DNA from: Pseudomonadota bacterium
GTDB lineage: Bacteria; Pseudomonadota; Gammaproteobacteria; Burkholderiales; Burkholderiaceae_C
DNA: 64,000 bases
NCBI GenBank assembly: GCA_040387875.1
Contig: JAZKCX010000039.1
Span: 2,127 to 66,126 of the forward strand
Direction of reading: 5' to 3'
Shown piece after piece: positions 41,945 to 61,642 of the stretch. Positions within the stretch are counted from its first letter, which is position 1. Each line of letters begins with the position of its first letter. The notes below the pieces were generated by a model. That model saw nothing but the letters and a program-made list of their open reading frames with translations. It made no database searches and was not told the origin of the DNA. The translations under genes were made by a program, and so were the position numbers.

Positions 41945-41947
41945 CGC

Positions 41948-43132
41948 CTATTTTTTAGGAGCAGAAGACGTAGCACTGGCGCCGGCCAGAGGCTTATTTG
42001 GCTCAGAAATAGCGGCTGCAGCCACGTTTTTGACCAAATCGCCGTCGTTCAGGAAACCGGCACCGCTGGCCACCAGCACCGCATCCGGCGCAATGCCGCC
42101 CAGCACTTCCACCCGGTCGCCCAGCCGGCGGCCAGTCTGCACCTTGAGCTGGGACACGCGGTTGTCCGCGCCCAGCCGGAAAACGTAGCTGAAGCCGTCG
42201 CGCACCACCACCGATTGCTGCGGTACCGTCAGCGCGGCGGACGCGCCCATCTCGAACTCGCCCTTCGCAAACATCCCGGCCTGAACCGGCGCCGACGCTC
42301 CAGCGCTGGTTGGCAAATCCACATAAACCAGCGCCGCCCGGGTTTGCGGGTCGACCGTGGGCGCCACCATGCGCACCTTGCCCTGGAGCTGCGTGCCGTT
42401 GGCCGCAGTGACCTTGGCGGTAGTGCCAGGAATCAGCCTACCGAGTTCGGTGGATGTCACCTCGGCCCGCCACTCCAGCCGGCCCTGGCGGATCAGCCGG
42501 AACAGCTCGGTGCCGCTGGCCACCACCGCGCCTACCGTGGCGGTACGTGAAGAGATCACGCCCGCATCGGGCGCCAGCACCTGGGTTTGCCTCAAACGCA
42601 GTTGCTGCACCGCCAGGCTGGCACGTGCCGCCTCGACCCTGGCCTGGGCTGTCTGCGCGGTGGTGAGGTACTGGTTGATCTGCTGGGTGCTGAGCGCGCC
42701 GGTGCTTTGCAGGGTGCGGGCGCGTTCGGCGTTGTTGGTGGCGTCGGCGGCATTGGCGTCGGCCTCGGCCAGCGCGGCCTTGGCCTGGGCCAGATCGGCC
42801 AACACCGGTTCGCTGGCAAAGCTGGCCAGCACCTGGCCGGCGCGCACCCGGTCGCCCACATTGGCGCGCACTTCGCGCAGCCGCAGGCCGCTGGCCTCGC
42901 TGCCGACGATGGCCTCCTGCCAGGCGGTGATGTTGCCGTTGGCCGCCAGGGCAATGGGCAAACTGGCCTGCTGCGGCTGGGCAGTGGTGACAGTGAGCGC
43001 AGGTTTGGGCGGGGTGGTCTTTTTCTCGTCCGCTGCCGTAGATTTGGAAGAAAAAAGCACGAACGCCAGCGCCAGTATTACGACAGCCGCTATCGCATAA
43101 ATAGCAAGAGAATTGCGTTTGAAGAAGGTCAT
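41948..43132 (-). CDS. RND efflux periplasmic adaptor (membrane fusion protein)
   Basis: An N-terminal anchor, a coiled-coil hairpin (AQAKAALAEADANAADATNNAERARTLQ) and beta-barrel blocks are present. The last 19 codons derive from a REP-like element. Confidence 0.9.
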   Translation of the reverse strand: MTFFKRNSLAIYAIAAVVILALAFVLFSSKSTAADEKKTTPPKPALTVTTAQPQQASLPIALAANGNITAWQEAIVGSEASGLRLREVRANVGDRVRAGQVLASFASEPVLADLAQAKAALAEADANAADATNNAERARTLQSTGALSTQQINQYLTTAQTAQARVEAARASLAVQQLRLRQTQVLAPDAGVISSRTATVGAVVASGTELFRLIRQGRLEWRAEVTSTELGRLIPGTTAKVTAANGTQLQGKVRMVAPTVDPQTRAALVYVDLPTSAGASAPVQAGMFAKGEFEMGASAALTVPQQSVVVRDGFSYVFRLGADNRVSQLKVQTGRRLGDRVEVLGGIAPDAVLVASGAGFLNDGDLVKNVAAAAISEPNKPLAGASATSSAPKK

Positions 43133-44592
43133 GGATTTCTGCTGCTCGCTGCTGCCGTGGGTGTGGCGTTGTTCAGTGCGGTGTCGGTGGCGTTCCAGCC
43201 GCCGCCCATGGCGCGGTACAGCGCCACCCAGGCAGCGCGGCGCTCGCGTTGCAGGCTGGCCAGCGCGGTGTCGGCAGCCAGCGCGGTGCGGCGTGCGTCT
43301 TCCAGCTCCACCAGGCTGGCCAGTCCGCTCTGGTAGCGGGCCTCGGTACCTTTGAACGATGCGCGGTAGCCTTCGCTGGCAACCTTGGCGTCGTCGCTGC
43401 GCTGGGCCGTGCTTTGCAGGTTGACCAGCGCTTCTTCGACCTCGCGCACCGCCTGGCGCACCTTGCTGCGGTAGAGCGCAGCGGCCTCCACATAGCGGGC
43501 CTCGGCCGACGCCACGTTGGCGGCGCTGCGGCCGCCGTCAAACAGCGGCAGGCTCAGCGCGAGGGGGCCAATCGCCCAGGTGTCGGTATCAAAGGTCATG
43601 CCGGCCGCGCGGTAACGCAGCGCGCCGATGGAGCCGCGCAGCGTGAGCCGCGGGTAGCGCTGGGCCTGGGCGCTGCCCAGATCGGCGCTGGCGGCGGCCA
43701 CTTCGCGTTCGGCGTTGAAGATGTCGGGTCGCTGGCCGAGCGCCTGCGCTGGCACAGACGCTACCGAAACAGGAGCAAAGTCTTGAATATCCGCACCGGC
43801 TACTGGCAGTTTTGATCTTAAATCTGGCTCCTGCCAGCCGCTCAGGGCCACCAGGCCCTTGATGTCGATGTCGCAGAGTGCGCGCTGCTGGGTGGCGCGG
43901 CCACGGCCTTCGGCAGCGCTGGCGCGGGCCAGTGCGGCTGCGGCCGGGGCCTGAAAACCGGCCTGGGCGGCAAGCTCCGCGAGCCGGGCAGTCTCGCCGC
44001 GCGAGGCGGCGTCGGCCTGGCTGATCTGCAGCAGGCGCTCACAACTGCGCAGGCTGCTGTACAGGTTGGCGACTTCCGCCGCCACCGACACGCGGGCATC
44101 GTGCCACTGCGCCTGGGCGCCGTCGAGCCGGGCCTGGGCGGCGTCGCGGCTGGCGCGGTTGGCACCAAACAAATCTATCTCCCAGGCGGCCTGCAGGCCA
44201 CCGGTGATGGTGGTGGCCACAATGTCGGGCGGCGGGCTGCCGGGGGCAATGACGGTTTGCACCGGCTCGCGGCTGGCGCTCAGGTTGGCGTCGAGCGTCG
44301 GCAGCAATGCCGCCCCAGCGGTGGTGCGGCTGGCGCGGGCCTGGGCAATGCGCGAGGCGGCGGTGGCTACCGTGGGGCTTTGCTGCTGGGCCGACTCGAT
44401 CAGCGCCACCAGCAGCGGGTCGCCCTGCTGTTGCCACCACTGCGACAGATCGGTCAGCGAGCCCTGGTGCGGCAGCGGCGCCTGCCACTGCGTGGGAATC
44501 TCCGGTACGGGCTGCGGACTCGCCATGGGCGCAGCGCAGCCGGCCAGCGCCAGCAGCACGGCGAGGGCGGAGAGGGTTTTGGCAGAGGTCAA
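43129..44592 (-). CDS. efflux outer membrane factor lipoprotein, NodT/OprM family
   Basis: Lipobox LALAGCA and two TolC-like repeat halves are present. The gene overlaps both neighbours by 4 nt. Confidence 0.9.
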   Translation of the reverse strand: MTSAKTLSALAVLLALAGCAAPMASPQPVPEIPTQWQAPLPHQGSLTDLSQWWQQQGDPLLVALIESAQQQSPTVATAASRIAQARASRTTAGAALLPTLDANLSASREPVQTVIAPGSPPPDIVATTITGGLQAAWEIDLFGANRASRDAAQARLDGAQAQWHDARVSVAAEVANLYSSLRSCERLLQISQADAASRGETARLAELAAQAGFQAPAAAALARASAAEGRGRATQQRALCDIDIKGLVALSGWQEPDLRSKLPVAGADIQDFAPVSVASVPAQALGQRPDIFNAEREVAAASADLGSAQAQRYPRLTLRGSIGALRYRAAGMTFDTDTWAIGPLALSLPLFDGGRSAANVASAEARYVEAAALYRSKVRQAVREVEEALVNLQSTAQRSDDAKVASEGYRASFKGTEARYQSGLASLVELEDARRTALAADTALASLQRERRAAWVALYRAMGGGWNATDTALNNATPTAAASSRNP

Positions 44593-45335: not shown

Positions 45336-47186
45336 TTAGCCGGACTCGATTTTTCGCTTTTCCACCCTGCAGAATTGGTAGGCGTAACCTTTCGCACCGA
45401 TAAACGCCTTCTGCAGGATGCAACTACCTGCGTTGATGGAAAAACCACGGCTTTCGGCTGTTTTTGACGCGCCCTCCAGAAGCGTTGTGTTTTCCGATTC
45501 CAACTCCTGTTGTCGTTGCGGATACAACTGGAATTCACACGTCACATCACTGGAATTTTGTTTGACTCGGGGAATGACCGCCCCGGCGAGCTCGGTAGTT
45601 CGATTGATATAGCGGGTCACCAATTTGCACGCTGTACTGCCAGTGCGGATCTGGTTGCGTTGCAACCAACGGTTCAGTCTGGAAAGCCTGTGGGCGCGCG
45701 CATCCACACGCCCTTGAACAATTGCGTACAAACCCCCTGGACGACTGTCAACGAGGGATTCCGCACGCTCCCAGAAAACTTTTGATTGTGAAATTTCAGT
45801 GAGCGATACAAACACCAGCTGTTCAGGGAAGGCGGGCGTGATCCAGGCAAAAGGAGGGCCGATCAACAACACCATCGATGAATCGGGCTGGCTGATCTTG
45901 GGCACCTCCACTGCATAGCTTTCGCTGGACCACGGCGCATGGCCCCACGTTTCAAACCGCACTAGCGTTACCAGCATCGAAAACACCAGCATCATTGGCA
46001 CAAACCGGTTTGCCTTTGTAGGGCCGACGAGCGCCCTGAAAGCCAACCAGCACGCGATCGGCAACAACATTTCTATTGATACCGCATACCGACCAATGCT
46101 GAACAACAACATCCAAGTGAAGTAGCTGGTGGCCAGGAATATCAGGAAAGGACGAATACCATGGGATTCCCCTGTGGCGGGCAATCCTTCCGCGCGATTC
46201 GATCTTGCACCGGAGATTTTCCTGAGAAGATTTCGGAAAAACCAGACCCAGAGCAGGGTGTAGCTGATCGGCCATAGCCACAGCGTCAGCTTTATTTCAC
46301 CCATCCGCTGCGGCGAGACGGCTACCACATAGGGGTAAAAAATGGCTTCGACAATGCTGCGTGGCATCCAGCTTGTATCGCGCAGGGAGCTTTGTTCAAA
46401 AAGCTCTGACCGAAAAACCGAATTGAACATCGGAAATACCGGGTTTCCGAAATGCTGCCACATCGTCAAATACCAAAACCCGCCCGTCACCGCCATGCCG
46501 AACAACACGCCCAGGCCAAAAATGGTCGTCACCGCCAGGCGCTGTGGTAACGGTAGCCTGAGACAGAGCAGGCTGACAAAAATACCCACCGCGTAGATCG
46601 CATTGGTTAATTTGAGCCCGGCACCCATACCCACCAGCAGGGCGGCCAGAAAGCAGATGCCCAGGCCACTTCGCCAATCTGATTCCAGTGTTTTCCACGA
46701 CTTGAGAATCAGATACAGCGCACCCAGATTCAGCAAGGCTGTTGTGTTGTCGCCCATGGTGTTACCCAACTCGGACAGGAAGGTCGGTGCAAGACACCCG
46801 CCCAGTGCCAGCAACACCACCACATGCGTTTTCGTATCGGTGGGCAGTAACAGGCGCGCAATGGCCAGCAACAAGCCAAAATTCAGCCCATGTAGACACC
46901 CCATGATGAAACCTGTCGCGGGGGGCCACAGGTATTTGGACATCCAGTAATAAGGAATATCCAGCAGCGGATTGAAGTAACTTTGGATTCCCGCAGGCGC
47001 CAGATCAGTGCCTGTTCGGTTGGTCAGATAGGCCCATGGGTTGTAGACATGGTAATTCTGAAGATCCCAGTTGGCATCCTGTCCTGCATACAGCGAAAGC
47101 AGGCCAAACAGCGCAGCACCCACAGCCCACAAAGGAATCTCGTACCCACACAGTCTTGGCGCCAGAAATGCAGATGGTCTGATCAT
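45336..47186 (-). CDS. polytopic membrane protein, candidate GT-C-fold glycosyltransferase (GT87/DUF2029-like, uncertain), with a ~190 aa C-terminal soluble domain
   Basis: A 616 aa protein with about 11-12 hydrophobic helices in the first ~420 aa. An acidic/aromatic loop (DANWDLQNYHVYNPWAY) follows helix 1, as in GT-C enzymes. The gene is clearly lower in GC than its neighbours. Confidence 0.45.
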   Translation of the reverse strand: MIRPSAFLAPRLCGYEIPLWAVGAALFGLLSLYAGQDANWDLQNYHVYNPWAYLTNRTGTDLAPAGIQSYFNPLLDIPYYWMSKYLWPPATGFIMGCLHGLNFGLLLAIARLLLPTDTKTHVVVLLALGGCLAPTFLSELGNTMGDNTTALLNLGALYLILKSWKTLESDWRSGLGICFLAALLVGMGAGLKLTNAIYAVGIFVSLLCLRLPLPQRLAVTTIFGLGVLFGMAVTGGFWYLTMWQHFGNPVFPMFNSVFRSELFEQSSLRDTSWMPRSIVEAIFYPYVVAVSPQRMGEIKLTLWLWPISYTLLWVWFFRNLLRKISGARSNRAEGLPATGESHGIRPFLIFLATSYFTWMLLFSIGRYAVSIEMLLPIACWLAFRALVGPTKANRFVPMMLVFSMLVTLVRFETWGHAPWSSESYAVEVPKISQPDSSMVLLIGPPFAWITPAFPEQLVFVSLTEISQSKVFWERAESLVDSRPGGLYAIVQGRVDARAHRLSRLNRWLQRNQIRTGSTACKLVTRYINRTTELAGAVIPRVKQNSSDVTCEFQLYPQRQQELESENTTLLEGASKTAESRGFSINAGSCILQKAFIGAKGYAYQFCRVEKRKIESG

Positions 47187-47564: not shown

Positions 47565-48062
47565 TCAGTTCAGCAGGCGCTTGGCTTCGAGCCGGCCGCA
47601 CTTGTCCTGAATCACCACGTTGCTGTCGATGACGCGGTTTTTGCCTTCGCGGGAGCTCACGTCCAGCAGCATGCGGGCCGGAATGGCGCGGCAGCCGATG
47701 GGCTCGCACAGGGCTTCTTCGCCGTTTTTCACCAGCGAGGCCTCGACCACAAAATCGCCGCCCGAGGCAATCGTCAGTCCGCCGAACTTCACTTCCTTGG
47801 TGTTGCGGAAATACACAAACTGTTCGGTGGTGGCCTTGCCCAGTTTCACCATGGCCGATTTGCTGTCGATCACCACCGCCACGATTTTCTGCTCGGGCAG
47901 CTTGACGATATCGACCGAACAACCTGCCGAGCGGGCATTGAACTTGGCCTTATCCGCATCGGAAATGAACTGCAGGCTGAGGTCGGGCGCCTGGGCCTGG
48001 GCAGCAAAGGCGGTGGCAAGGGCGAGTGCAACGACGGCAATTGAATGCGTCCGGAAGTTCAT
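47565..48062 (-). CDS. hypothetical secreted protein
   Basis: The ATG at 48062 has a GGAG Shine-Dalgarno sequence. A signal peptide ends in AQAQA, and the mature part carries 4 Cys. I recognise no family. Confidence 0.5.
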   Translation of the reverse strand: MNFRTHSIAVVALALATAFAAQAQAPDLSLQFISDADKAKFNARSAGCSVDIVKLPEQKIVAVVIDSKSAMVKLGKATTEQFVYFRNTKEVKFGGLTIASGGDFVVEASLVKNGEEALCEPIGCRAIPARMLLDVSSREGKNRVIDSNVVIQDKCGRLEAKRLLN

Positions 48063-48319
48063 TCTGGCTCCTGGGCAAGTGGCAAGGGCGCGTCGGGCTT
48101 TTGGCCCTTCCACCCCGGTATTCTGGCTGATATTTGCGGAAGGTCCTTTCCGCACGGTCTGCGGGCTGACTGCATCCCACCGTCGTCGCTTTCACAGGTA
48201 ATCAAATGTAAGCCCTCGAAGCATAGGCCACAACCGTGGCGGCCCCCTGCGGTAAATGGGGAACGGGCGGCCCAGCAGAGCGGTTGACCGGCACGAAGCC
48301 GGGTACCACCGGCGGGCGC

Positions 48320-50281
48320 CTACGCCAGCGAACGGAAAAGCGCCTCGAGCTTGCGCGCAGACTCTGCGGGGTTGGTGGCGGGGCTGTCTTCCAGCCGCTG
48401 CCGCATGCCCTGGCGCAGTGCTTCGAGTTCCTGCGGATGGCTGGCGTAGTGTTTGCAGCGGGCCACATATTCGTCGGTGCTGTGGGCGACCAGCTCGGTC
48501 AACGCCAGCGAAGTAAGCAGCGAAAGACTCACGCGCGAGACGTGGGTCTTGCCGGCCAGGGTGATCACGGGAATGCCCATCCACAGCGCCTCGATGGTGG
48601 TGGCGGTGCCGTGGTAGGGATAGGGGTCCAGCGCAATATCGGCCTGCTGGTACAGCGCCAAGTGCTGCGCAAAACCCATGCGCGCGTGCATCTGTACCCG
48701 GCCCAAATCAAAACCCATGCGCTCAAAACGCTGCAGTTGCTCGGTCTTGAGCACCGCGTCGGACAGCGGCGCGGCTTTCACAATCAGCCGGGTCTCGGGC
48801 ATCTCCTGCATGATGCGCGACCACAGCGCCAGGGTCTCATCGGACAGCTTAGCGAGGTTGTTGAAGCTGGCCAGCGTGAGGTAGCCGTTGCGCAGCAGCG
48901 GTGTGGGCCCGCAGGGCGGCAGTTCGGGTGGCTTGCGGATACACAGGAAGGGCGCCGGCATGCGCAGCAACTTTTCTGAATGGATCGCATCGGCCAGCTC
49001 GGGCGGGTCGGCAATCGCATCCGAGATGCGGTAGTCCATGGTCGAAAGACCCGTGGTGTTGGGATAGCCCAGGTAAGTCATCTGCACCGGCGCCAGACGC
49101 TGCCCGAAAATCGGCAGGCGGCTGTCGCCTGTATGGCCCGACAGGTCGATCAGCACATCGACCTTGTCGGCAACAATCTGCGCCGCAAGTTCTTTGTTGC
49201 TGCTGCGGCCCAGCTCGCGCCAGCGGTCGCCAAAATGCTGCTTGAGCTGCTCGGTCAGGCCGTCCGACTTGTCTCCGGCGTTGTAGAGCACGATATCGAA
49301 CTGTTTGCGGTCGTGCTGCATCAGCACCGGCGCAATGATCTGGCCGACCGGGTGCTGGTAGAAATCGGGGCTGACGTAGCCCACGCGCAGCTTGCGCTTG
49401 CCGAGGGCGAGCTTGGGTTTGGCAACCGCATCCGCCGTACCGGTGTGCCAGCCACGCGTCCACGCGACGTGTTCGCTGTAGATGTAAGCCGGGTCGTGCG
49501 CCTGGTAGTTGAGCATCAGCAGGTAGTTGGACACCGCCGTGGTGTTGGACGGGTTGCCCTGGGCACTGGAACGGAACAGCTCGGTGGCACGCGCAATATC
49601 GCCATTGCGGTAACACATGCCGCCCAGAAAGGTGCTTGCAGGCGTGTAGTCGGGAAACTTTTCCAGGCACTCGGTCCAAAGCGCCCGCGCTTCGGCGAGC
49701 TGGCCGGTTTCCTGATGGGCCCGGCCCAGCAGAAAGTAGCTGCGGTCGGAGTGTTCCGCCGCATGGAAGACCTTGCAAAAAGGCAAGGCATCGCTCCAGC
49801 GGTTTTGCCGGGCCAGGAGCTCGATCAGGTTGGACTGCGCCAGCCGCATGCCGGGCTGCAGGATAACGGCCTCGGTCAGGTGTTCCAGCGCTGCTTCAAA
49901 CTCGTGCAGTTCGGTCAGCACATAGCCCAGGTTGTTACGGGCCTGGCCCACCTCAGGCCGCAAGGCCACCGCACGGCTGTAGCACATTTTGGCGGCGGGG
50001 AAATCACGCAGCGTCGAATAACAGTTGCCCAGCGACAGCACTGCGTCGTAGCCCAGCTTGTCCTGGTCAAACAATGGCCGCAGCAAAAAGATCGCGTCTA
50101 CCGAGCGACCATTTTTGTTGAGATAGTCCGAGAGTGCGGCATGCGCTTCGGTGTTGTCCGGAGCGAAGGCGAAGGCCCGCAGGTAGGCAGCCTTGACGCT
50201 GTCAATGGAGGTGCCAGGCTGCTGCGACAGGCGCCGGGCCTGCAGCAGTGCCGCCGCAAAGCGTACTTCGTCGTTGTTCAT
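48320..50281 (-). CDS. TPR-repeat protein with a C-terminal GT41 (SPINDLY/OGT-type) glycosyltransferase domain
   Basis: The N-terminal ~280 aa are TPR repeats. The C-terminal half is collinear with OGT catalytic lobes ([75 protein letters not shown]). Confidence 0.8.
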
Positions 50282-50515
50282 GCGTTGGTGTCTGATGAAG
50301 CAGGTGAACGGGGTGGCGGGCACACGCCCGCGTGCCCCCGCCTGCCATTATGCGGACTTCGCAACCAGTGTTTTGCCTGCGTGCCAGCGCCACCGCAGCG
50401 GCCAAAAAAATCCTGTAAGAAAGGGCGGCCTGTCCCTACAAAGAAGCACCGCAACCTGAATGATCAGTACCGTGCGGTGTCGTTCAGTCATCTCAATTTC
50501 CTATTGGAGTTTTCA

Positions 50516-50803
50516 ATGATCGCTAACCAAGCCAAGTTCGCCGCTTCCTTCGCCCTGACCGCCGCCACGCTCGCGCTGGCCGCAACCGCCTTCGCCGCCG
50601 ACGCCCCCAAGGGCTCCAGCGGCAAGGCCGTCGCCGCCAAAGACAAGGTGCATTGCTACGGCCTGCATGAGTGCAAGGGCAACAGCGCCTGCAAGACCGC
50701 AGAGCACAGCTGCAAAGGCCAGAATGCCTGCAAGGGCCATGGCTTTGTGGCTTCGACCGCATCGCAGTGCCTGACCAAGGGCGGCACCATCGGCGACCTG
50801 TAA
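50516..50803 (+). CDS. DUF2282-type Cys-rich precursor peptide with a Sec signal peptide (bufferin BufA-like)
   Basis: A GGAG Shine-Dalgarno sequence lies 6 nt upstream. The product is 95 aa, with a signal peptide ending in AFA-ADA. The core [33 protein letters not shown]...QCLTKGG has 6 Cys. The gene lies immediately upstream of the DUF692 gene. Confidence 0.75.
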
Positions 50804-50875
50804 TCTGGTCTGACCTTGCCCCTGACATCCTGCCTGCAAGGGCGGGATGTTTTTTCATTTCCGGGTGTCTTCACC

Positions 50876-52600
50876 ATGCCTAAAAACCTCTACTCCCTGA
50901 CGGTGCCACACGCCGGTTTCGGTCTGGGTTTGCGAACCACCCACTACCCCGATTTTCTTGCATGCAGGCAGCCACTGGACTGGCTGGAAATCATCACGGA
51001 CAACTACCTGGTGGATGGCGGCAAGCCGCTGGTGACGCTGGACGCGATCCGCCGCGACTACCCCCTTGCCATGCATGGCGTGGCCCTGTCACTGGGTGCG
51101 CCTGCGGGCCACGACCGCGCCTATCTGAAGAAGGTCAAGGCGTTGGCAGACCGCATTGATCCCCTCTGGATTTCCGACCACCTGTGCTGGATCGGGCCGG
51201 AGCCGCAGCAACTGCACGACCTCTATCCCCTGCCTTACACCGAAGAAGCCGCACGCCACCTGATAACGCAGATCCGCCAGGTCCAGGACGTATTGCAGCG
51301 CCGCCTGGTAGTGGAGAACGTCTCCAGCTACATTGATTTCGCCTACTCGGCAGCCACCGAATGGGAGTTTCTGAGCCATATCGCGAACGAGGCCGATTGT
51401 TCCCTGCTGGTCGATATCAACAACATCTATGTCAGCAGCGTGAACCACGGCTTTGACCCCCTCGCCTATTTGCGTGGCCTGCCGGCGCAGCGTATTCAGC
51501 AGTTCCATCTGGCTGGCCATTCCAACGAGGGCACCCACATTGTTGACACCCACGACCACCCGGTGGCCGAGCCCGTGTGGGAACTCTACGCGCAGGCGTG
51601 CCAGATGTTTGGCCCAGTGACCACCATGATCGAGCGGGACGACCACATCCCGCCTTTGCGGGAGTTGATTGAAGAGCTGGACCGTGCCCGTGGCATTGCC
51701 GCCGCCCTGGAGAACGAACAGCCCCGCAGCGCGTACCATGCCTCGGCGTTGCGCTGGGCTGCGCCCCTCGCAGCACAAGACCCGGGCTTGCAGGCAATGC
51801 GGCAGCGCATGGCCACCTACGTCTTGGGCCCCGCTAACGGCACCGAAGCCATGGCGCCTATGGTGCGCCAAGCGCCGGGTGTGGATGTGCCTCTGCGCCT
51901 TTCCATCTACCACCACGCCTACCGCGCCCGGCTGGCCGAAGTGCTGGCGGACACCTTTGAGAAAACCGTGCTCTATATGGGCTCGGACAGTTTCACGCAG
52001 CATGCCCGTACGTTTGCGGAGCAAAACCCGCCGCTCACCCGAAGCCTGGGTCGGTACGGCGCGAGCTTTCCGGCCTACCTGGCGGCGCTTTATCCCCACA
52101 ACCCGGAGTTGCGCGAGCTGGCCTACCTGGACTGGGACTTGCGCAGCTGTTTTGACGGTGCCGATGCGCCCGCCCTGGATGCGGCGGCCGCGGCGGCCGA
52201 CGCACAGCAATCGTGGTTGCTCCATACGCCCGCAATACACCCCAGTCTGGTGCTGCGCGAAATTACCAGCAACGTGGTGCAGCTCTGGAAGTCCATCGAC
52301 GAAGACCAGGAGGTTCCCGCACCGGTCTATCGCGATACCCCCATGGCTTTGGCAGTCTGGCGCAAAGGGCTGCAGCCACACTTCAAAACGGTAGAGGGCA
52401 TGCAGGCCGTCTGGCTGCGCCGGCTGATGGCAGGTGCGTCCCTGTCGCAAGCCTGTGGTGAATTTGAGGGCACAGAGCACATGCCTGAGATCGCCGTATT
52501 CGGCCAGTGGCTGGCTGAATGGCTGGAAGACGAACTGCTGAGCCCACCACCGCTGCTGCAGCCATTGGCACACGCTGCAGCAGCAGAAGCCGTCAGTTAA
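50876..52600 (+). CDS. fused DUF692 (MNIO, MbnB/BufB-like) and DUF2063 (MbnC/BufC-like) protein
   Basis: Residues 1 to about 285 are DUF692-like (GFGLGLRTTHY, LEIITDNY, HGVALSLG, SDHLCW, ENVSSY, DINNIYVS, FHLAGH, IERDDHIPPL). Residues from about 310 to the end are DUF2063-like (RLSIYHHAYRARLAEVLADTF, RSLGRYGASFPAYL). The ORF is continuous at 574 aa. Confidence 0.8.
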   Translation: MPKNLYSLTVPHAGFGLGLRTTHYPDFLACRQPLDWLEIITDNYLVDGGKPLVTLDAIRRDYPLAMHGVALSLGAPAGHDRAYLKKVKALADRIDPLWISDHLCWIGPEPQQLHDLYPLPYTEEAARHLITQIRQVQDVLQRRLVVENVSSYIDFAYSAATEWEFLSHIANEADCSLLVDINNIYVSSVNHGFDPLAYLRGLPAQRIQQFHLAGHSNEGTHIVDTHDHPVAEPVWELYAQACQMFGPVTTMIERDDHIPPLRELIEELDRARGIAAALENEQPRSAYHASALRWAAPLAAQDPGLQAMRQRMATYVLGPANGTEAMAPMVRQAPGVDVPLRLSIYHHAYRARLAEVLADTFEKTVLYMGSDSFTQHARTFAEQNPPLTRSLGRYGASFPAYLAALYPHNPELRELAYLDWDLRSCFDGADAPALDAAAAAADAQQSWLLHTPAIHPSLVLREITSNVVQLWKSIDEDQEVPAPVYRDTPMALAVWRKGLQPHFKTVEGMQAVWLRRLMAGASLSQACGEFEGTEHMPEIAVFGQWLAEWLEDELLSPPPLLQPLAHAAAAEAVS

Positions 52601-54314
52601 TCAGCGGCCGGTAGTAATTGGCCGGTGGCGGAGCAACGTCTTCGACCGGCGGCCGGGACTCCACAGGCGGAGGCGGCTGCACCGCAGGCCGGAATTCGCG
52701 TGCCGGTGGCGAGCTGACCAGCGGCCGCAACTCGACCGCTGGCCGGGGTGGTACGGGTGCCGCCAGGCGAGGCTCAATGTCCAGCGCGGCCACCGGTGCG
52801 CCAAGCGCGGAGCTGCGCTTGAGCACCGGACTGCGTGGTTCTGGCGGGAGGGGCACCGAAGCCGTGTTGCAGTTGGCGTTGTCGGTACGGCAGACCGACT
52901 CGCGCAGGCTTTCTGAAAATATGTCGTTGGCATCGGCTTTGGACACCACGCTGTGAATCCAGCCGTTGTCGCTGACGCCATCGACCAGCAACCTGCCGGA
53001 AGTCCTGGCCAGCCGGAATTCGGCAATGCGCAGATCAAACACGCCGTCTGCCAGATCCAGCAGCAGATTGAAATGCTCAAGCTGAGCGTCCAGCACATTG
53101 GGCAGTGTTTCGCGGCCAAACCCGAGCAGCCGGCGTTTGGACTGGTAGGCGAGACCCGCCTCGCTCACCGCTTCCATCAGTTGCTTGACCCGATCCGCGC
53201 CGGAAGAGGTACGCCCCCAGGAAGCAGATGTCACCTCCACCAGATTGGCGCGCGCAGCCTCCAGCCGGGCCTCTTGTGCGCCTACTTCCACCAGCGCCGC
53301 CTTGATGCGCGACTGCACATCAAAGCCGTTACCCAGGTTGAAGTTCAACTCCAGCGCTGCCCGCGTGGGCTCGGTTGTCAGGTCGCGGTTGTCTTTGGTA
53401 CGGGACACCACTGCATCCAGCGTGGGAAAGCGGCCGGATTTTTCACGGTCCACGTTCGCCTTGGCGCGCTCTATGCGGCCGCGGGCCTCGCCCAGCTCGG
53501 CGCTGTTGGCCTCGGCAATCTGAATGGCCTGGGCCAGCGAACCCACCGCCCACTCCTTGGGCGTGGCCAGCGTCGGCAACCCGGCGGCATTGGGCACAAA
53601 CTTGAAATAGGTTTCAAACTTGGCCAGCGCATCGATCAGCAGGGCATCAAATTCCTGCCGCTTGGCGGCTGCGCCCGACCGGCGCGATGCCGCAAGGCGC
53701 GCATCACCCTGACCGGCAGCACCCAGCTCGACCTTGCGCTGTTCGGCGCGGGTCAACTCATCAAGAACCAGCGTGGAGCGGGCGGCAATGCGCTTTTTCA
53801 GATCAAAGCGCTGCACCTGGAGGTAAGTCGTGATGCCATCAAGCACCACCTTCTGGCTGGCAACCCGCAAACCCTCTTCCAGCGCACTGGAGTTGGCAGT
53901 GGCAGCCCGCTCGCGGGCATTGATGCCACCGGCATCCAACAGGCTGACCCGCGCGCTGGCGGTCAGGGCTGTAAAGCGCTGCGAGGACGTGTTGCCGGGA
54001 GACGTAAAGGTGCTGGAGCGACCGGTCGCAGTGGCCAGTGAAAAACGTGGAAACCGGGCCCGTTTGGCGGCTTCGGTCTCAAACCCGCTGCTGGCCAGAC
54101 TGGCCTGCGCGGCCAGAACCTCGGGATGGTCCTGGGCCATATTGAGTATGCCCAGCTTGACCTTGTCCGAGTACTCGACCGTACCCAGCGAACGGCCTGA
54201 GAGTGTGGTGGAGGGCGCCAGAACCGGCGCGCCATCGTCCTGCGCATGCGCGTTGAGGGCGGCCACGAACAGGGCAACCGCAAGATGCAGCGGAGAGGGT
54301 CTGAACACGTTCAA
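52593..54314 (-). CDS. TolC-family outer membrane protein of the T1SS, with a 90-aa Pro-rich C-terminal extension
   Basis: The TTG start overlaps the MFP stop (TTGA). A signal peptide ends in AHAQ, and two TolC repeat halves are present. The tail is rich in Pro and Arg. Confidence 0.85.
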   Translation of the reverse strand: MNVFRPSPLHLAVALFVAALNAHAQDDGAPVLAPSTTLSGRSLGTVEYSDKVKLGILNMAQDHPEVLAAQASLASSGFETEAAKRARFPRFSLATATGRSSTFTSPGNTSSQRFTALTASARVSLLDAGGINARERAATANSSALEEGLRVASQKVVLDGITTYLQVQRFDLKKRIAARSTLVLDELTRAEQRKVELGAAGQGDARLAASRRSGAAAKRQEFDALLIDALAKFETYFKFVPNAAGLPTLATPKEWAVGSLAQAIQIAEANSAELGEARGRIERAKANVDREKSGRFPTLDAVVSRTKDNRDLTTEPTRAALELNFNLGNGFDVQSRIKAALVEVGAQEARLEAARANLVEVTSASWGRTSSGADRVKQLMEAVSEAGLAYQSKRRLLGFGRETLPNVLDAQLEHFNLLLDLADGVFDLRIAEFRLARTSGRLLVDGVSDNGWIHSVVSKADANDIFSESLRESVCRTDNANCNTASVPLPPEPRSPVLKRSSALGAPVAALDIEPRLAAPVPPRPAVELRPLVSSPPAREFRPAVQPPPPVESRPPVEDVAPPPANYYRPLIN

Positions 54315-55642
54315 GGCTCCTGGAATGCTTCACGCTGGGCCTTCAGCACCGGCCTGAGAATGTACCAAATGAAGGGGTCACGCCCGACCAGCAGATCGAC
54401 CTCAACCTCCATACCCGCCGTGATGGCCCGCTCGGGAATGCCCACGTACTCCTTGTCGGTACTGATCAGCAGCCGGTAGTAGGAGCGCACAGTGGGGTTG
54501 GTCGGGTCGCTGTCGGCATCGGCACCGACAAGGTTGACTTTCCCATTCACCGCGCCATAGCGCAGGAAATCGTAGGCGCTCACTTTGACGCGTGCTGTCT
54601 GTCCGGTGTTGACATAACCACGGTCACTGGGATTGAGCTTGGCTTCGATGATGATCTGCTTCTGGTCAGGCACCACTTCCATGATCTGCTCACCCGGCTT
54701 CACCACCCAGCCCGGGCTGGGGTTGCGCAGCCCCTTGATGATGCCGTCGGCCGACGCGCGCACGACCGTGCGCGAACGCTGGATTTTGGCACGTGAAAGG
54801 TCTTCGCTCAGACTCGCAATCTGCCGCTCGGCAGTGGCCAGTTCGTCAGAGGCTCGCCGGCGGTAACGGCCCTGCGCCTCGACAATTTTGCCTTGCGCTT
54901 CCGTAATGGCGGAACCGGCAGAGACCAACGCCTGCCGGGCGGTAGCAAGGTCGCCCCGTACGGCCTCCATCTGGCGCTGCTTTTCCAGGACCTCGAGTTG
55001 CGGAATCAGTTTTTCGTCCAGCAGTTGCTGGGACAGATCGACTTCTTTTTTGTAGAGCGCCAGCCGCGACGTCAGCCCATTGACCCGCTCCTGCTGCTCG
55101 ACCAGCTTGCTGCGGGCCTGCGCCAATTGCGACTCTGCGGTGTCCACCACGCCTTTTTGCTCCAGCGAGCGGGCTTCAAAAGCGCCCGATTCGGCCTGGA
55201 AGACCGATTCGTCAATGTCTTTGCCCAGCGCCGCGCGGGTAAAAGGTTTGCCCTGGCTTTCGGCCAGCAGGCGCGTACGCGTGGCCTGCAACGAGGCGTA
55301 GCGAACCGTCAGTTCTTCGAGGTTCAGGCTGTTACCGCCCAGATCAATTTCTACCAGCGGTTGGCCCGATTTGACTTTTTCACCTTCCTTAACAAGTACC
55401 GCACTGACAATACCACCCTCCAGGTGCTGCACCACCTTGACCTGGTCGGAGGGAATCACTCTGCCCGGCGCAATCACCACCGACTCCACCGGGAACCCCA
55501 GACCGAACGCGGCGAGAACAACCACCCCGCCCCACAAAAGCCATGAGGTGATGGATTTTTTTCTGGAATAGGGAAGCGCTTTGGTGGAGCTTGCAGGATT
55601 CTGCAAAACCAGCGGGAGGGTATTGGCGTTCTTGGAGTCCAT
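54311..55642 (-). CDS. HlyD-family type I secretion periplasmic adaptor
   Basis: An N-terminal TM, the HLEGGIV motif, a long coiled coil and a C-terminal barrel are present (443 aa). Confidence 0.9.
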   Translation of the reverse strand: MDSKNANTLPLVLQNPASSTKALPYSRKKSITSWLLWGGVVVLAAFGLGFPVESVVIAPGRVIPSDQVKVVQHLEGGIVSAVLVKEGEKVKSGQPLVEIDLGGNSLNLEELTVRYASLQATRTRLLAESQGKPFTRAALGKDIDESVFQAESGAFEARSLEQKGVVDTAESQLAQARSKLVEQQERVNGLTSRLALYKKEVDLSQQLLDEKLIPQLEVLEKQRQMEAVRGDLATARQALVSAGSAITEAQGKIVEAQGRYRRRASDELATAERQIASLSEDLSRAKIQRSRTVVRASADGIIKGLRNPSPGWVVKPGEQIMEVVPDQKQIIIEAKLNPSDRGYVNTGQTARVKVSAYDFLRYGAVNGKVNLVGADADSDPTNPTVRSYYRLLISTDKEYVGIPERAITAGMEVEVDLLVGRDPFIWYILRPVLKAQREAFQEP

Positions 55643-55676
55643 GGCTTCAATTCAAAGGTAGTGCGCTGATGCTGGA

Positions 55677-57530
55677 TCAGCTGTCCGCCGGCTCGGCAGG
55701 CGCAGAGGATTTCGGCGCGGCAGAAATTGCTGCGGTTGCCGCAGGCGCCGGCAACTTGACGCCGAACAGCTTGGGCACCATCACCGATGCGGAGCCACTC
55801 TCGACATTGCCCGCCCCGGTGACGTAATGCACCTGGCTGGCACTGGCCACAATACGCAGCGAGTGCGTCACCACAATGATGGTGCGGCTGCGGGCCGCAG
55901 CCATCAGCGCGGCAATCAGCGCCGTCTCCGCCTGGTAATCCAGGTCATTGCTGGGCTCATCCAGAATCACAACAGCCGGATCGCGCAGGAACAACTGGGC
56001 CAGCGCAAGCTTGCGGCGTTCACCCATGGACAGGCCCATGCCGCCCTCACCCAGCACCGTGCGGTATCCTGCTGGCAAGCGCGAAATAAAGTCGTGTGCA
56101 CCGGACAGGCGGCAGGCTGCAACAATTCTTTCGTCGGTCTGGTCGGGGGCGGCGCGGCGGAGGATTTCAATCAGCTCTCCGCCAAAAAGATATACCTCTT
56201 GCGACAGGATACTGATCCACTGAACCAGCTCTTCCCGGGCAAACTGCGACAGGTCATATTCATCAACCGAGATTTTTCCGTTGGTGGGGCTATACAGGCC
56301 CGCAACCAGTTTGACCAGCGTAGATTTGCCGGCGCCGTTTTTACCGACAATCACATGCAGACCACCGGGCCCGATTTCGAGATTGACGTTCTCCAGCACG
56401 GAGGCGGAGTTTTCGTTGAACTGAAAGCTGACTTCCTGCAGCCGGATTGCCCCGCGCGGCTTGGGCAACACAATGCCACCCGGGCGGCGATCCGTTGGTT
56501 CATTGAAGACGTTTTCAAGCCGCTTTGCGGCCTCGGTGGCGGTTGCAAGAGATCGCCAGTTGGAAGCCAGCCCCGCGACGGGAGACAGGGCTTTGGACGA
56601 CAACATGCTGGCGGCAATCAGACCGCCGACAGTCATCCATTGCTGCATGACTGCCAGAGCCCCGACCGACACCACCACAACGGAGAAAACCGACAGCATC
56701 ACAGTGGTCAGCTCCCGGGCGCGCTCTATCTCGCCGTTTTTTCGGAAACTCTCGCTGAGCCAGGCGTTGTAGTTCTGTTGCCACATCGCTACGACAGGCT
56801 GGTTGTGCCCCAGACTTTTCAGGGTTTCACGGGCCCGGCAAATCTCTGACGTCACCTGGTCCAGGCTACGTCCGCGGAGCACTTCTTCGACACGCCCGGC
56901 GCGTACTTCATCAGCCCACCACCAGGCAAAAAACGCAAGTACTCCCAAAAACAGCAAAAGCACTGGCAACAGCGGCCATGCCACCATGCCAATAATGACG
57001 AGTGCAAAAAGAGCCACGGGCATGTCAAAGATGGAGGTCATCAGCCCACCGGTCACTGTTGCACGCACTGCGCCCACGTCGCGGAACAACAAAAACCATG
57101 CTGTGGCAGGCCGGGACTCCAGCATGCGCAAAGGCCGCTGCAGCATGGACTGCAACAAGGCGTTCGACACCCCATGGTCAACAATTGCGCCGGCATCGCG
57201 CAGCGACCGGGACCGCTTATTGCGCAGCCACAACTCAATCAGCAAAAACACAAAAATACCGGCCAGCAGGGCGACCAGTGTGGAGTAGCCACTGCGACCA
57301 ATCACGCGGTCGTACACCTGTAGCGTGAAAATTGACGGCAACAACCCGAACAGACTGATGGGCAGCGACCACCAAGCCGCCTGCTTCACCAAGGGGTAGG
57401 CACTGGTAAATGCGTCGTGCAGCGCGCCACCGTAGGGAGTGACCGCAGAGTCGGTAGCCGTCTTGTTCACTAACTGACGGGGCAACAGGAATTTGAGCAT
57501 GGTTGTTACAGGAAGATAGTCGAGCGCCAA
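55677..57530 (-). CDS. type I secretion system ABC permease/ATPase (PrtD/HasD-like, no C39 peptidase domain)
   Basis: The TMD carries LQVYDRV. Walker A GKNGAGKST, signature LSMGERRK, Walker B VVILDEPSNDLD and H-loop VTHS are present. The maximal ORF starts at TTG 57530, and the first ATG is at 57500. Confidence 0.9.
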   Translation of the reverse strand: MALDYLPVTTMLKFLLPRQLVNKTATDSAVTPYGGALHDAFTSAYPLVKQAAWWSLPISLFGLLPSIFTLQVYDRVIGRSGYSTLVALLAGIFVFLLIELWLRNKRSRSLRDAGAIVDHGVSNALLQSMLQRPLRMLESRPATAWFLLFRDVGAVRATVTGGLMTSIFDMPVALFALVIIGMVAWPLLPVLLLFLGVLAFFAWWWADEVRAGRVEEVLRGRSLDQVTSEICRARETLKSLGHNQPVVAMWQQNYNAWLSESFRKNGEIERARELTTVMLSVFSVVVVSVGALAVMQQWMTVGGLIAASMLSSKALSPVAGLASNWRSLATATEAAKRLENVFNEPTDRRPGGIVLPKPRGAIRLQEVSFQFNENSASVLENVNLEIGPGGLHVIVGKNGAGKSTLVKLVAGLYSPTNGKISVDEYDLSQFAREELVQWISILSQEVYLFGGELIEILRRAAPDQTDERIVAACRLSGAHDFISRLPAGYRTVLGEGGMGLSMGERRKLALAQLFLRDPAVVILDEPSNDLDYQAETALIAALMAAARSRTIIVVTHSLRIVASASQVHYVTGAGNVESGSASVMVPKLFGVKLPAPAATAAISAAPKSSAPAEPADS

Positions 57531-57880: not shown

Positions 57881-59755
57881 TCAGCGGTCCAGCAAACCAC
57901 CCAGTGCACCAGTGACAGGGTTGGCTTCTGCGCCGCCCAGGCTGGTCACGGGGATAGGCAGGCCACCGCCCAAACCACCACCCAGCGACCCAAGCAGATC
58001 GCCCGGGATCAGGTCCGTTGGTACCGGCAGGCCACCGCCAGCTCCGCCCAGAGAACCGACCAGCTCAAGAACGGGTTCGAGCAAGCCGCCCGCGCCGCCT
58101 GTGAGCAGATCGGTAGGTACAGGCAGGCCACCAGCGCCGGCGCCCAGCAAGTCGGTAGGAACCGGCAAGCCCCCACCGCCCAGCGAGCCGAGCAGGGAAG
58201 TCAGCGGGCCGAGAGCGCCGCCGGCATCACCACCCAGCAAGCCGCCGAGACCACCCAAACCACCCGCGTCAAGCGCGCTTGCGCCCGTGGTTGCGCCGCC
58301 GCCGATGACGCCGCCACCCAGCAGTGCAAGAACCGGCGCAAGGAGGCCGCCACCGTCAAGCGAACCGGTACCGCCGAGCAGACCGCCAAGCAGGTTGCCG
58401 CCCACCTGTGCGCCGCCTTCGCCACCACCTGCGCCAACGCCGCCGGAGACAGAGCCCAGACCGCCATTGAGGAAGTTGCTCAAACCGTTTGTCAGCTGAT
58501 CAACCTGCAGATTCGCGGGTCCGATCAGCGATTCCGTAGCGCCTTCGCCCAGGATTCCGTCGACGATGGGTTGCAGAACATCGTTGCCTACGGAGGTGAC
58601 GCTGAAGCCCAAGTTGTCCACCGGGTCGAGCTGATTGGGGGCGTCGAATCCAGGGTCAATACCGAGGGACTCGGTGATGTCGTTACCAGTGTCCGTAACG
58701 GTTTTGACCAGATCGTCCAGAGGTTGCAGCGAACCACCGATGCCAGCGCCTGCAGCGCCCAGTGCACTGCCGTCCAATGCATCGGTCAAGTTGTCGACCA
58801 ACTGCGCCGTAGGATCCAGGAGACCAGGCTTTTGCGCACCTGGACCGGTACCCGTACCGGTGCCGGAGCCAGTGTCCGTACCGGTATTGGTACCCGTATC
58901 GGTTCCCGTGTCTGTACCGGTGTTGGTTCCAGTATTGGTGCTGGTGTTAGTGCCCGTATCGGTACTGGTATTGGTTCCGGTATTGGTGCTCGTGCTCGTG
59001 CCAGTACTGGTACTCGTGCTCGTATTCGTACCAGTGTTGGTGCCCGTGGTAGTACCGGTGCTGGTGCCGGTATCCGTACCCGTGTTCGTGCCCGTGTTGG
59101 TATTGGTGCTTGTGCCCGTGCCTGTACCGGTCGCTGTTGCGGTGCTGGTATCTGTGCCGGTTCCAGTGCTGGTGCCCGATCCCGTACCGGTTCCGGTGTT
59201 GGTGCCGCCCGAGCCGCCGTCGTCGTCATCGTTCAGCGCAGCGGCCAAACCGGCCAGACCCAGAAGTGCCAGAGGCAACCATCCCAGACCTTCGGTACCT
59301 GCAGCGCCCTTTTTCTTCACAGCAACCGATGCGGCATCGGTGGCGTCGGGTGCGGCCACGAACAGGTCGCCCGTGGCCATATCGACCGTCACTTGCTCAA
59401 CACCGGGGGACAGCGTCTTGACACCAATAACCGCATCCGATCCACCGGAGAAAACGCCGTTCAACGGGGTTTTGCTGCCGCCAGGGCCGGGGAAAGTTAC
59501 GTTGGCCGAGCCGCCTTGCGGAACAATAACGCGGTCACCAGCCAACAGCGAAGTATTTCCTTCGGCCGCAAACCTTGCGCTTCCGCGCACAACTTCCACG
59601 CCGGGAGTAGCACCAGACAGAACGCCTAAGCCTCCCGCCTGAGAAGCTGCTACGGGAGCGGCAGACGCGGCAGCAGGGCTTGCCTGGGCGAGGGTCGTGA
59701 TGTCTTCACCAGCGGTCAACGGGCCTTTCAGGCTCGTTTCTTGAGTTGCGATCAT
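57881..59755 (-). CDS. T1SS-linked repetitive Cys-free acidic protein, paralog P2
   Basis: The ATG at 59755 is preceded by AAGGA. There is no signal peptide. The layout is: conserved N-terminal domain, KKK-hydrophobic-DDDD segment, a 119-aa X-Thr array, an acidic D/L-rich domain shared with P3, then a Gly-rich C-terminus with [10 protein letters not shown] repeats. Confidence 0.8.
58847..59203 (-). repeat. X-Thr dipeptide array in P2 (60 consecutive units, 6-nt period)
   Basis: Hand check of aa 196-314 of the 635-aa ORF. Every even position is Thr, twice Ser, with no register shift. The odd positions are only G, N, S, D, A or T. Confidence 0.9.
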
Positions 59756-60137
59756 AAAAAATCCTTTGGAAAGCAGGATATGGGGCACTAAAACAATGCC
59801 TTGATTATAGTTATCGGGCAGGGAGTGGAGAAACTTTAATGCTTTTGTTTATGGCAATTCTCATCAAATTGTGTGACTTAATTCATGAAATCGATTGCAA
59901 AGTATCTACCCGCTTGTCCCAGAGAGGGATTTAGTCACCGATTAGGGTAAAGTTTAAGTGGGGCAGATGGTTGGAGTAATACTAATGTTTGGAGAGCCAA
60001 AACCGGCACCCCAAAAGCCCGCCATGGCAGTGTTTCTAAAGGGTGAAACTCGATGCTGCAACAGGCTTGGATGGCCAAAGCAGGAGTTCAGCGTCGACCT
60101 ATTAAAAGCATTACTTCAAAAGCACAAAACAAAATGC

Positions 60138-60166
60138 AAAATGGCTGCCTACGAGGCAGCCATTTT
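60138..60166 (-). terminator. rho-independent terminator after cargo gene P3
   Basis: The sequence AAAATGGCTGCCT-ACG-AGGCAGCCATTTT lies 58 nt downstream of the P3 stop. Confidence 0.6.
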
Positions 60167-60223
60167 GGCGAGAAGACAAAGCGCACCAAACCTATGTGAA
60201 ATTTGCGTGCGCCAAGCCTCGAT

Positions 60224-61642
60224 TTACAACATCGACAATATGGGCGCCAGCGGAGATGGGTTGCTGGCCGCATCGGTGGAGCTGGAGATTGGCGGTATGG
60301 CCCCTGGCGTGCTGCCGTTGCCGGACACGTTCTCCACAAACTCGGAGCCTGAACCCACAACCACGCCAGGTGTGTTTTCTCCGGTCGCGGTATTTCCAAG
60401 GGCACCCACCGGCGCCAAAACGCTACCAGCACCGCCCAAACTACCGAACATGCCGGTCAGCGGCCCCAGCAAACCACCCACTCCTGCAGTCTCGCCCACA
60501 CCCAGCAGACCCGAAGAGCCCAGCGCGTTGGTCAGCCCATCCGTCACGAAATCGACCTGCAGGTCTGCGGGACTGATCAGGGTTGCCGTTACGCCATTGC
60601 CCAGGATGGAATCCACCAGCGGAGTGACCGGAACAGACACCACGCCGCCGGTGACATCCGCGGCAAGTGCATCCACTGAATCCAGAGAGTTGGGGTCATC
60701 GGCAAAAAACTCTTCGCCAACGACAGGCGCCAACAGGCCGTTGCCAGCATCGGTAACCGATGCAACCAAGTCATCTACCGGTTGCAAAGATGTACCCAAA
60801 CCACTTGCCAACCCGCCGAGCTCCGCTTTTGCGGCGCCGTCGGCCGGCGCTTCTGCAGCGCCGCTGGGCCCTTCAAGGGCATCGGTCAGATTGTCAACCA
60901 GCGTCGCGGTTGGATCGAGGAACCCCATGCCCTCTGCACCCGTCCCCGTATCGGTGCCAGTTCCGGTCCCGGTATCGGTGCCAGTCCCGGTGCCCGTGCC
61001 AGTGTCCGTACCAATTCCGGTTCCGGTATCCGTGCCAATACCTGTGCCCGTACCCGTATCGGTGCCAACACCGGTACCCGTGCCAGTGCCGGTGTCGGTA
61101 TTGTCCCCACCGCCTCCACCACTACCAGCGAGACCGGCCAGTCCAAGCAAGCCCAAAGGCAGCAGCCAACCCAGCCCGCCGTCGGCCACAGCAGCCTTTT
61201 TCCTGACCAGCAAGGACGACTCGATCTGGGTGAAATCCGGGGGAGCAACAATAAAGTCACCAGCAGCCAGGTCAACCACCACCTGGTCAACACCCGGGGC
61301 AATGGTCTTGACGCCGATCACCGCCTCAGAACCACCAGAAAAGACCCCCACCAAAGGATTGGGATTGCTGGCAGAAGCGGGAAAAGCCACATTGGCCGAC
61401 CCACCTTCGGGCACGATGACCCGGTCACCCAACTGCAGCGCAGCGGACCCTTCGGCAGGCAAGCGGGTTCCTCCGCGGACGATTTCCACGCCCTTAGAGG
61501 CATCGGACAGCACGCCCAGCATGGGCACCGCCTGGGGGGTTGCCGCAGCCGTAGCAGCAGGGGCAACCGCAGCCTGCGCCACCAAGGCATCCAGGCCTGG
61601 TGAGCTTAGAACTTCGGCACTCGTATTAGGGGTAGATTCCAT
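60224..61642 (-). CDS. T1SS-linked repetitive Cys-free acidic protein, paralog P3
   Basis: The ATG is preceded by an AAGAGG Shine-Dalgarno sequence. It has the same architecture as P2: N-terminal domain, RKK-hydrophobic-GGGGGD segment, a 54-aa X-Thr array, the shared [14 protein letters not shown] domain and a Gly-rich tail. Confidence 0.8.
60941..61102 (-). repeat. X-Thr dipeptide array in P3 (27 units)
   Basis: aa 181-234. The even positions are Thr, apart from V192, I202 and I210, which are also beta-branched. Confidence 0.85.

Follow-up and report, generated by a model that had tools for sequence, protein, structure and literature searches.

Whether a bufferin maturase and its partner protein, which in most bufferin loci are encoded by two overlapping genes (bufB and bufC), can occur naturally as a single polypeptide is the question raised by a locus in contig JAZKCX010000039.1 (assembly GCA_040387875.1), a contig from a metagenome-assembled genome (MAG) assigned to the Burkholderiaceae_C. 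The window analysed here comprises 64,000 nucleotides (nt) of this contig, positions 2,127 to 66,126 of the forward strand, and the locus consists of a gene for the precursor of a ribosomally synthesised and post-translationally modified peptide (RiPP), bufA2, followed by one long open reading frame (ORF), bufBC. An earlier note on this DNA had proposed that the locus is of the bufferin type, and that an MNIO enzyme and its DUF2063 partner are joined in it as one chain of 574 amino acids (aa). Both proposals were borne out: BufA2 and BufB each score above the respective NCBIfam equivalog cut-off, the ORF is continuous, and all 120 of the best homologues are fused. The locus is read here, with high confidence, as a minimal two-gene Buf2-type bufferin locus, comprising bufA2 and a naturally fused bufB-bufC.

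In the six-frame ORF list, a reading frame on the forward strand runs uninterrupted from a TTG codon at position 50816 to position 52600. The start of bufBC was placed at the ATG at 50876 rather than at the upstream TTG, this being where the N-termini of 44 homologues align, and it is from this codon that the product has 574 residues. Searches with Pfam hidden Markov models (HMMs) placed both of the anticipated domains above threshold, with PF05114 (MbnB_TglH_ChrH, formerly DUF692) in the N-terminal part (E value 3.5e-104; 348 bits against a cut-off of 25) and PF09836 (DUF2063) in the C-terminal part (57.2 bits against a gathering score of 27.2); the boundaries of these and of the other features are collected in Table 1.

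The reality of the fusion was then examined in a homologue set comprising the best 120 of 2,258 significant matches in a collection of 5.8 billion proteins. Each of the 120 carries both Pfam domains in one chain of between 548 and 640 aa, at 57-99% identity, and the set draws on NCBI, JGI, ENA and Logan assemblies, including the genome of a Hylemonella gracilis isolate. HMMs built from each half of the protein likewise recovered both domains in 120 of 120 sequences, the intervening linkers ranging from 19 to 39 residues with 20 distinct lengths, all of them in frame. Such variation in length with retention of frame is indicative of a selected interdomain linker as opposed to a recurrent sequencing error. 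Additionally, the 574-aa protein is encoded again on a second NCBI contig, where it differs by two substitutions within the linker and by no insertion or deletion, and an identical locus layout is present in relatives whose proteins are 84%, 67% and 66% identical.

The N-terminal half has the attributes of a BufB-type MNIO enzyme. It scores 358.5 bits against a cut-off of 310 with the NCBIfam equivalog NF050167 (MNIO_BufB, 'MNIO family bufferin maturase'), and falls well under the respective cut-offs of the HvfB, ApyH, MbnB and ChrH models from the same collection. An alignment of 45 fused homologues shows no variation at the metal-site residues H67, H102, E147, D180, N183, H211, D224, H226 and E253, and the motifs in which metal-site residues lie (HG, SDHL, EN, DxNN, HLAGH, DTHD and ERD) align with those of MbnB, TglH and the structure 3bww. 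Comparison of this half with the PDB using Foldseek returned 3bww (template modelling score 0.87 on the target), TglH (8hi7_B) and MbnB (7dz9 and 7tcr). An AlphaFold2 model of the entire 574-aa chain, calculated from the homologue alignment, has a mean predicted local distance difference test score (pLDDT) of 82.4 and a predicted template modelling score (pTM) of 0.77, the latter of which suggests a defined packing of the two domains.

The linker, estimated in the earlier note to lie at about nt 51,700-51,800, was located close to that position. Residues 276 to 304 include nine alanines and three prolines, residues 281 to 300 are the sole internal stretch of low confidence in the AlphaFold2 model (pLDDT 59), and the linker sequence is not conserved across homologues. 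It is followed by a conserved L-x-x-L-Q motif (residues 305-309) that corresponds to the N-terminal opening of stand-alone BufC proteins, and then by the DUF2063 helical domain and an RRE-like region. The latter is modelled as a three-stranded sheet with helices (pLDDT 87-96), and Foldseek relates the C-terminal half to TglI (8hi7_A; E value 1.4e-4), the partner of TglH. A single-sequence search of this half against PDB sequences returned nothing meaningful, while a profile constructed from it and 45 stand-alone relatives matched the C-terminal RRE-like domain of NGO1945 (3DEE; E value 1e-5). NGO1945 is the founding structure of PF09836 and combines DUF2063 with an RRE-like domain, differing from the present protein in being a stand-alone protein of 249 aa. 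The matches to PF09836 and to the 3DEE profile together mark the C-terminal half as a full PME-type 1 partner, comprising both the DUF2063 and the RRE-type parts.

Next, the frequency of the fused arrangement was examined. In a scan for related loci in one genome per GTDB species, from which the best 80 of at least 573 related stretches were analysed, seven loci had a single fused ORF, 70 had split genes and three were truncated at the end of a contig. Those with the fused ORF are L001-L006, from Burkholderiaceae, Acidovorax, Hydrogenophaga palleronii and similar organisms, and L012, from an alphaproteobacterial MAG. A search with the partner half in a library of 1.84 billion representatives clustered at 50% identity gave 5,193 matches at E values of 1e-3 or below, the best 150 of which include three full-length fused proteins (579, 524 and 567 aa) and two apparent fragments, the remainder being stand-alone proteins of 240-300 aa. 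Since 7 of the best 80 loci and 3 of the best 150 clusters are fused, a rough estimate from these sequences would make the fused form a small minority of bufferin maturases. With respect to the earlier note, the fusion itself stands, but the weight given to its rarity does not. The fusion is not a singular event: the best 120 matches are all fused and represent a large, old clade.

Indeed, neighbour-joining analysis of the MNIO domain groups the fused proteins of the Burkholderiales, P0130 and P0194 with their divergent sequences among them, in a single clade separate from the split proteins, and on the basis of this tree the Burkholderiales fusions are taken to be one old clade in which the architecture is inherited. 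Conversely, L012 nests amid split alphaproteobacterial loci, and is tentatively considered to represent a second, independent fusion event or, alternatively, an assembly error; it is known from one MAG, and the tail of its BufB part looks shortened or re-framed. The fused ORF at this locus (L012:3046-4699) is accompanied by two tandem BufA2-like precursor genes, one of which has only five Cys codons.

The split relatives give some indication of how the fusion may have come about. In the closest of these (Dechloromonas, Aquabacterium, Roseateles, Methylibium, Thiobacillus, Pelomonas and Rubrivivax) bufB and bufC share a 4-nt ATGA overlap, and this stop/start overlap corresponds to the position of the linker in the fused chain. 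The most likely origin of the fusion, judging from these junctions, is loss of the ATGA overlap by an insertion, deletion or other change of frame, with subsequent growth of the linker. In more distant split loci (L009, L010, L011, L017 and L020) bufB and bufC lie in one frame with a single stop codon between them, which suggests another easy route, in that one point mutation or readthrough could give rise to a fusion.

The precursor encoded by bufA2 had been labelled in the earlier note as a DUF2282 protein. This proved to be incorrect: the 95-aa product scores 97.8 bits against a cut-off of 60 with NCBIfam NF050166 (Cu_RiPP_BufA2), and a Pfam search returned no match to DUF2282 (PF10048) at E values up to 0.01, nor at values up to 10. 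By its sequence the precursor is accordingly placed in the BufA2 (Buf_6-12Cys) family, i.e. the Buf2 branch, and not in the DUF2282 (Buf1) branch. It has six Cys residues in the pattern C-x5-C-K-G-x3-C-K-T-x5-C-K-G-x3-C-K-G...C, a spacing common to more than 70 related precursors that are encoded beside both fused and split enzymes, and its sequence is devoid of EGKCG repeats. Inspection of the N-terminus by eye revealed a basic n-region (K7), a hydrophobic stretch and AFA|AD at residues 25-29, from which a Sec signal peptide of approximately residues 1-27 is predicted. Among the related loci, L026, L031, L054, L067, L069 and L071 encode BufA2 variants with 11-13 Cys residues in duplicated or extended cores, some of which have lipoprotein-type signal peptides (LAGC); these fit the 12-Cys and lipoprotein subtypes of a 2025 survey, and some of the long variants may be over-extended ORF calls.

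The earlier note was correct in stating that a DoxX gene does not follow the maturase gene, the next gene being a convergent TolC-like ORF, but its view of this absence as an oddity is not sustained. The characterised buf2 operon of Caulobacter vibrioides is also devoid of bufD/doxX, and in buf1 the DoxX protein is dispensable both for modification and for copper protection (PMC11626156). Moreover, at the seven fused loci inspected, the maturase gene is in no case followed by another gene on its strand. For these reasons the absence of DoxX is not anomalous.

With the precursor and both halves of the enzyme assigned, the locus can be compared with established systems. Defining features of Buf2 are present, namely a BufA2 precursor, a BufB MNIO domain with an intact iron site, and a PME-type 1 partner, here fused as opposed to being encoded by a separate gene. 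Those of Buf1 are absent, there being no DUF2282 precursor and no DoxX (BufD) gene in the operon. Scores for the HvfABC/oxazolin pathway (254.9 against a cut-off of 360 for NF003818; 17.7 against 142 for HvfC, NF050145) and for methanobactin (70.4 against 325 for MbnB, TIGR04159; no MbnC family match in Pfam or NCBIfam) fall short. The closest characterised counterpart is buf2 of C. vibrioides (BufA2, CCNA_03001; BufB2, CCNA_03000; BufC2, CCNA_02999), which by its description is alike in its six-Cys precursor family with a Sec signal peptide (predicted here), BufB-type MNIO, DUF2063 plus RRE partner, lack of DoxX and predicted product and role, but in which separate genes encode enzyme and partner as separate proteins, whereas here they form one 574-aa chain with a linker of 25-30 aa.

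A second point of comparison is the engineered HvfBC protein of the oxazolin pathway of Haemophilus influenzae, in which the domains are joined in the same order, MNIO C-terminus to PME1 partner N-terminus, and which is a 1:1, active single chain. It differs in being man-made and without a linker, in belonging to the HvfB subfamily, and in that its substrate is an EGKCG-repeat protein. Direct joining of the C-terminus of HvfB to the N-terminus of HvfC gave an enzyme more active than the co-expressed pair (bioRxiv 10.64898/2026.07.17.739211), a result by which a natural fusion with this domain order becomes plausible on mechanistic grounds and is probably of benefit. MbnBC and TglHI share with the present protein the MNIO fold, the iron-site residues and a partner with an RRE-like peptide-binding domain, but are two-chain enzymes whose substrates bear a leader peptide in place of a signal peptide, and whose chemistry also differs (oxazolone and thioamide formation, and beta-carbon excision, respectively). 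The only exceptions to the two-protein rule named in the HvfBC study are MovX, with a fused RRE, and ChrH, with an extra domain (bioRxiv 10.64898/2026.07.17.739211). MovX, as described there, is a natural MNIO with its own peptide-recognition domain in the chain, as here; according to that citing paper it has a fused RRE only, whereas in the present case a complete DUF2063 plus RRE partner is fused.

A working scheme for the locus can be drawn by analogy with the bufferins of C. vibrioides and with HvfBC and MbnBC. In C. vibrioides, both BufB and BufC are required, and Cys residues are converted to 5-thiooxazoles in the cytoplasm; the products are exported via Sec, lose their signal peptide and confer protection against copper by binding it in the periplasm (PMC11626156). 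Products of Buf2 show a change of -4 Da per Cys and a 305-nm band, as do those of Buf1 (PMC12452194). By analogy, the RRE/DUF2063 module would bind the unexported precursor in the cytoplasm, possibly including its signal peptide, and would present the precursor Cys residues to a mixed-valent di-iron site in the MNIO domain, which would then convert every target Cys by oxidation (-4 Da) into a 5-thiooxazole. Export of the modified peptide via Sec would follow, with removal of the signal peptide, and the product would buffer excess periplasmic copper. The fusion, for its part, would fix a 1:1 stoichiometry and keep enzyme and partner in permanent contact.

Several points weigh against this interpretation. 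The structure of the Buf2 modification had not been directly solved as of the 2025 survey (PMC12452194); no copper-related gene or regulator is adjacent to the locus, its neighbours being a TPR/GT41 protein and a type I secretion system; the pTM of the model is the sole measure of the interdomain geometry; and GenBank calls only a 263-aa partner coding sequence from an internal Met, and not the long ORF. The first two could be accommodated by a locus of the same architecture that installs a modification other than a 5-thiooxazole, or that handles a metal other than copper, and the literature does tie some bufferins to mercury and gold. However, the enzyme passes the BufB equivalog cut-off, fused and split loci cannot be told apart by their precursors, and the PME1-dependent MNIOs studied to date all install 5-thiooxazoles (PMC13097082), so that a different chemistry or metal is considered very unlikely.

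The GenBank annotation raises a different alternative. There, the precursor is MES2423281.1 (V4562_02550), and the consecutive accession, MES2423282.1, is a 263-aa 'DNA-binding domain-containing protein' corresponding to residues 312-574 (51809-52600 in the window). Its start is an in-frame ATG just past the linker, and it could feasibly be that the long ORF is made together with a BufC-like protein initiated at Met312, the enzyme then being in part a two-chain complex. This is judged very unlikely, given that Met312 lacks conservation, the residue being L, M or I in homologues, that no hint of a conserved internal ribosome-binding site was seen, albeit without a systematic scan, and that one chain suffices for activity in the engineered HvfBC fusion. 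Initiation at Met312 may yield a minor product, and the GenBank call is regarded, from the sequence comparisons above, as an annotation shortfall and not as evidence for two genes. Finally, although the window stems from a MAG, the split relatives are one frame shift, at the ATGA overlap, away from the fused form, and only the 263-aa partner is annotated in GenBank, the probability that a sequencing or assembly frameshift has joined two overlapping genes is deemed negligible in view of the uniformly fused homologues from several assembly sources and the H. gracilis isolate, the 20 in-frame linker lengths, the second contig with its linker substitutions but no indels, the separate clade of the fused proteins, and the linker itself, which exceeds the split junction by some 25 residues, a difference not to be expected from an error of 1 nt.

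The preferred reading, a bufA2 gene followed by a single gene for a fused maturase, also draws attention to how the two genes may be expressed relative to one another. The spacer of 72 nt between bufA2 and the ATG of bufBC contains a hairpin followed by a T-run, which is the sole strong terminator-like site between 50200 and 52800 (folding energy -29 kcal/mol; z = -2.9). Stems of different sequence, with compensatory changes, are present at the equivalent position in the orthologous loci L001 and L082, the T-run being weaker in L082. The hairpin may serve as an attenuator or partial terminator, or else stabilise the mRNA, giving more precursor than enzyme. In addition, no obvious Shine-Dalgarno sequence precedes bufBC, unlike bufA2, which has GGAG 6 nt upstream of its ATG. 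Owing to the spacer hairpin and the missing Shine-Dalgarno sequence, the enzyme is probably made in a much smaller amount than the precursor, and it is on these two features that an excess of precursor over enzyme is inferred. A scan upstream of bufA2 found no sigma-70 promoter. Approximately 100 nt before the bufA2 start, at 50414-50424, a block with the sequence TGTAAGAAAGG is identical in L082, the ortholog at 67% identity, with diverged flanks; it may be a promoter or regulator site, the comparison being of two sequences only.

The wider neighbourhood (Table 1) agrees with the coordinates and gene layout given in the earlier note, as checked against the ORF list and the Pfam and NCBIfam assignments, including the convergent TolC gene that comes next. 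The TolC-like ORF overlaps the bufBC stop by 8 nt, and its product has a proline-rich C-terminal tail of approximately 110 aa. The synteny with the TolC/HlyD/ABC and TPR/GT41 genes is retained in relatives at 66-84% identity, and is not seen in the distant fused loci L002-L006, shared ancestry thus being the simplest account of the conserved neighbourhood. A functional tie between bufBC and the TolC/HlyD/ABC genes was considered and set aside, the synteny being absent from L002-L006. The RND efflux trio, at a distance of 6-13 kb from bufA2 and bufBC, has its best score as a multidrug-type pump and not as CusCBA/CzcCBA, and gives the locus no clear metal context. None of the four ORFs without a Pfam family reached an NCBIfam cut-off. 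The idea of a copper island around the locus is therefore unsupported, given a pump of the multidrug type and other neighbours that either have no family or belong to type I secretion.

Table 1. Positions in the window, strands and descriptions of the bufferin locus, its protein domains and the surrounding genes.
Feature	Position	Strand	Description
RND efflux trio	37404-44592	-	NodT-type outer-membrane protein, adaptor and AcrB-family permease
ORF without Pfam family	45336-47186	-	616 aa; resembles a polytopic membrane protein
ORF without Pfam family	47565-48155	-	196 aa
TPR + GT41 glycosyltransferase-like gene	48320-50323	-	upstream of bufA2, divergent
bufA2	50516-50803	+	95-aa Buf2-type bufferin precursor
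Hairpin and T-run	50824-50861	+	12-bp GC-rich stem (50824-50851); within the bufA2-bufBC spacer
bufBC	50876-52600	+	one ORF, 574 aa, fused maturase
MNIO (DUF692, BufB-type) TIM-barrel	50918-51697	+	residues 15-274; PF05114
Interdomain linker	51713-51787	+	approximately residues 280-304; 25-30 aa, Ala-rich
DUF2063 helical domain, PME-type 1 module	51803-52081	+	residues 310-402; PF09836 (alias HvfC_N)
RRE-like winged-helix region	52193-52543	+	approximately residues 440-556, boundaries approximate; presumed precursor-binding part
TolC-like outer-membrane protein ORF	52593-54314	-	573 aa; convergent to bufBC
Type I secretion operon	52593-57530	-	TolC-like, HlyD-like and ABC genes; converges on bufBC
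ORF without Pfam family	57881-59788	-	635 aa; far sub-threshold match to a serine-rich protein model only
ORF without Pfam family	59958-61739	+	593 aa

With respect to novelty, a natural MNIO-DUF2063 fusion is not described in the bufferin papers, the supplements of the 2025 MNIO survey, the thiooxazole/captophorin paper, the RRE survey or the review of heteromeric enzymes, and full-text literature searches, the scope of which excluded most subscription journals, also found none. It is held with moderate confidence that a single-chain bufferin maturase is truly undescribed in the literature. The architecture is already visible in databases, where both Pfam domains are precomputed on hundreds of entries; a UniRef entry derives from a Hylemonella sequence of the 2014 era, and a 572-aa member is named 'MNIO family bufferin maturase' by NCBI. 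The broader proposition, that natural MNIO-PME1 chains constitute an old, selectively maintained clade in the Burkholderiales, perhaps with one more independent fusion, and have escaped description in the bufferin and MNIO literature, is favoured by a little over even chances. A landscape survey identified partners by inspecting the gene after the MNIO gene (PMC12452194), and since the partner is sought there, fused loci would be overlooked by surveys of this kind. Fused maturases are thus a blind spot for genome mining and annotation, as illustrated by the 263-aa GenBank call. A specialist would not be surprised by a Rosetta-stone fusion of two obligate partners, and the locus is otherwise an ordinary member of a very large RiPP family.

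The suggestion in the earlier note that a natural fusion supports an obligate 1:1 complex and would be a convenient single-chain enzyme appears reasonable, and the engineered HvfBC fusion bears it out independently. Work with MNIO enzymes is made difficult by a partner complex that is weak or forms only on co-expression, and HvfB was fused to HvfC in order to obtain a stoichiometric, highly active enzyme for spectroscopy (bioRxiv 10.64898/2026.07.17.739211). An evolutionarily stable natural fusion indicates that this topology is physiological, and supports a 1:1 intramolecular working unit. If the proposition holds, the natural chains would be the counterpart of the engineered HvfBC protein and evolutionary proof of an obligate 1:1 unit in which the C-terminus of the B protein lies beside the N-terminus of the C protein. 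They would also offer many sequence-diverse single-chain candidates for structures with bound BufA2, and a ready-made, well-behaved enzyme for structural and spectroscopic study of 5-thiooxazole formation and of how a substrate with a signal peptide is held from Sec.

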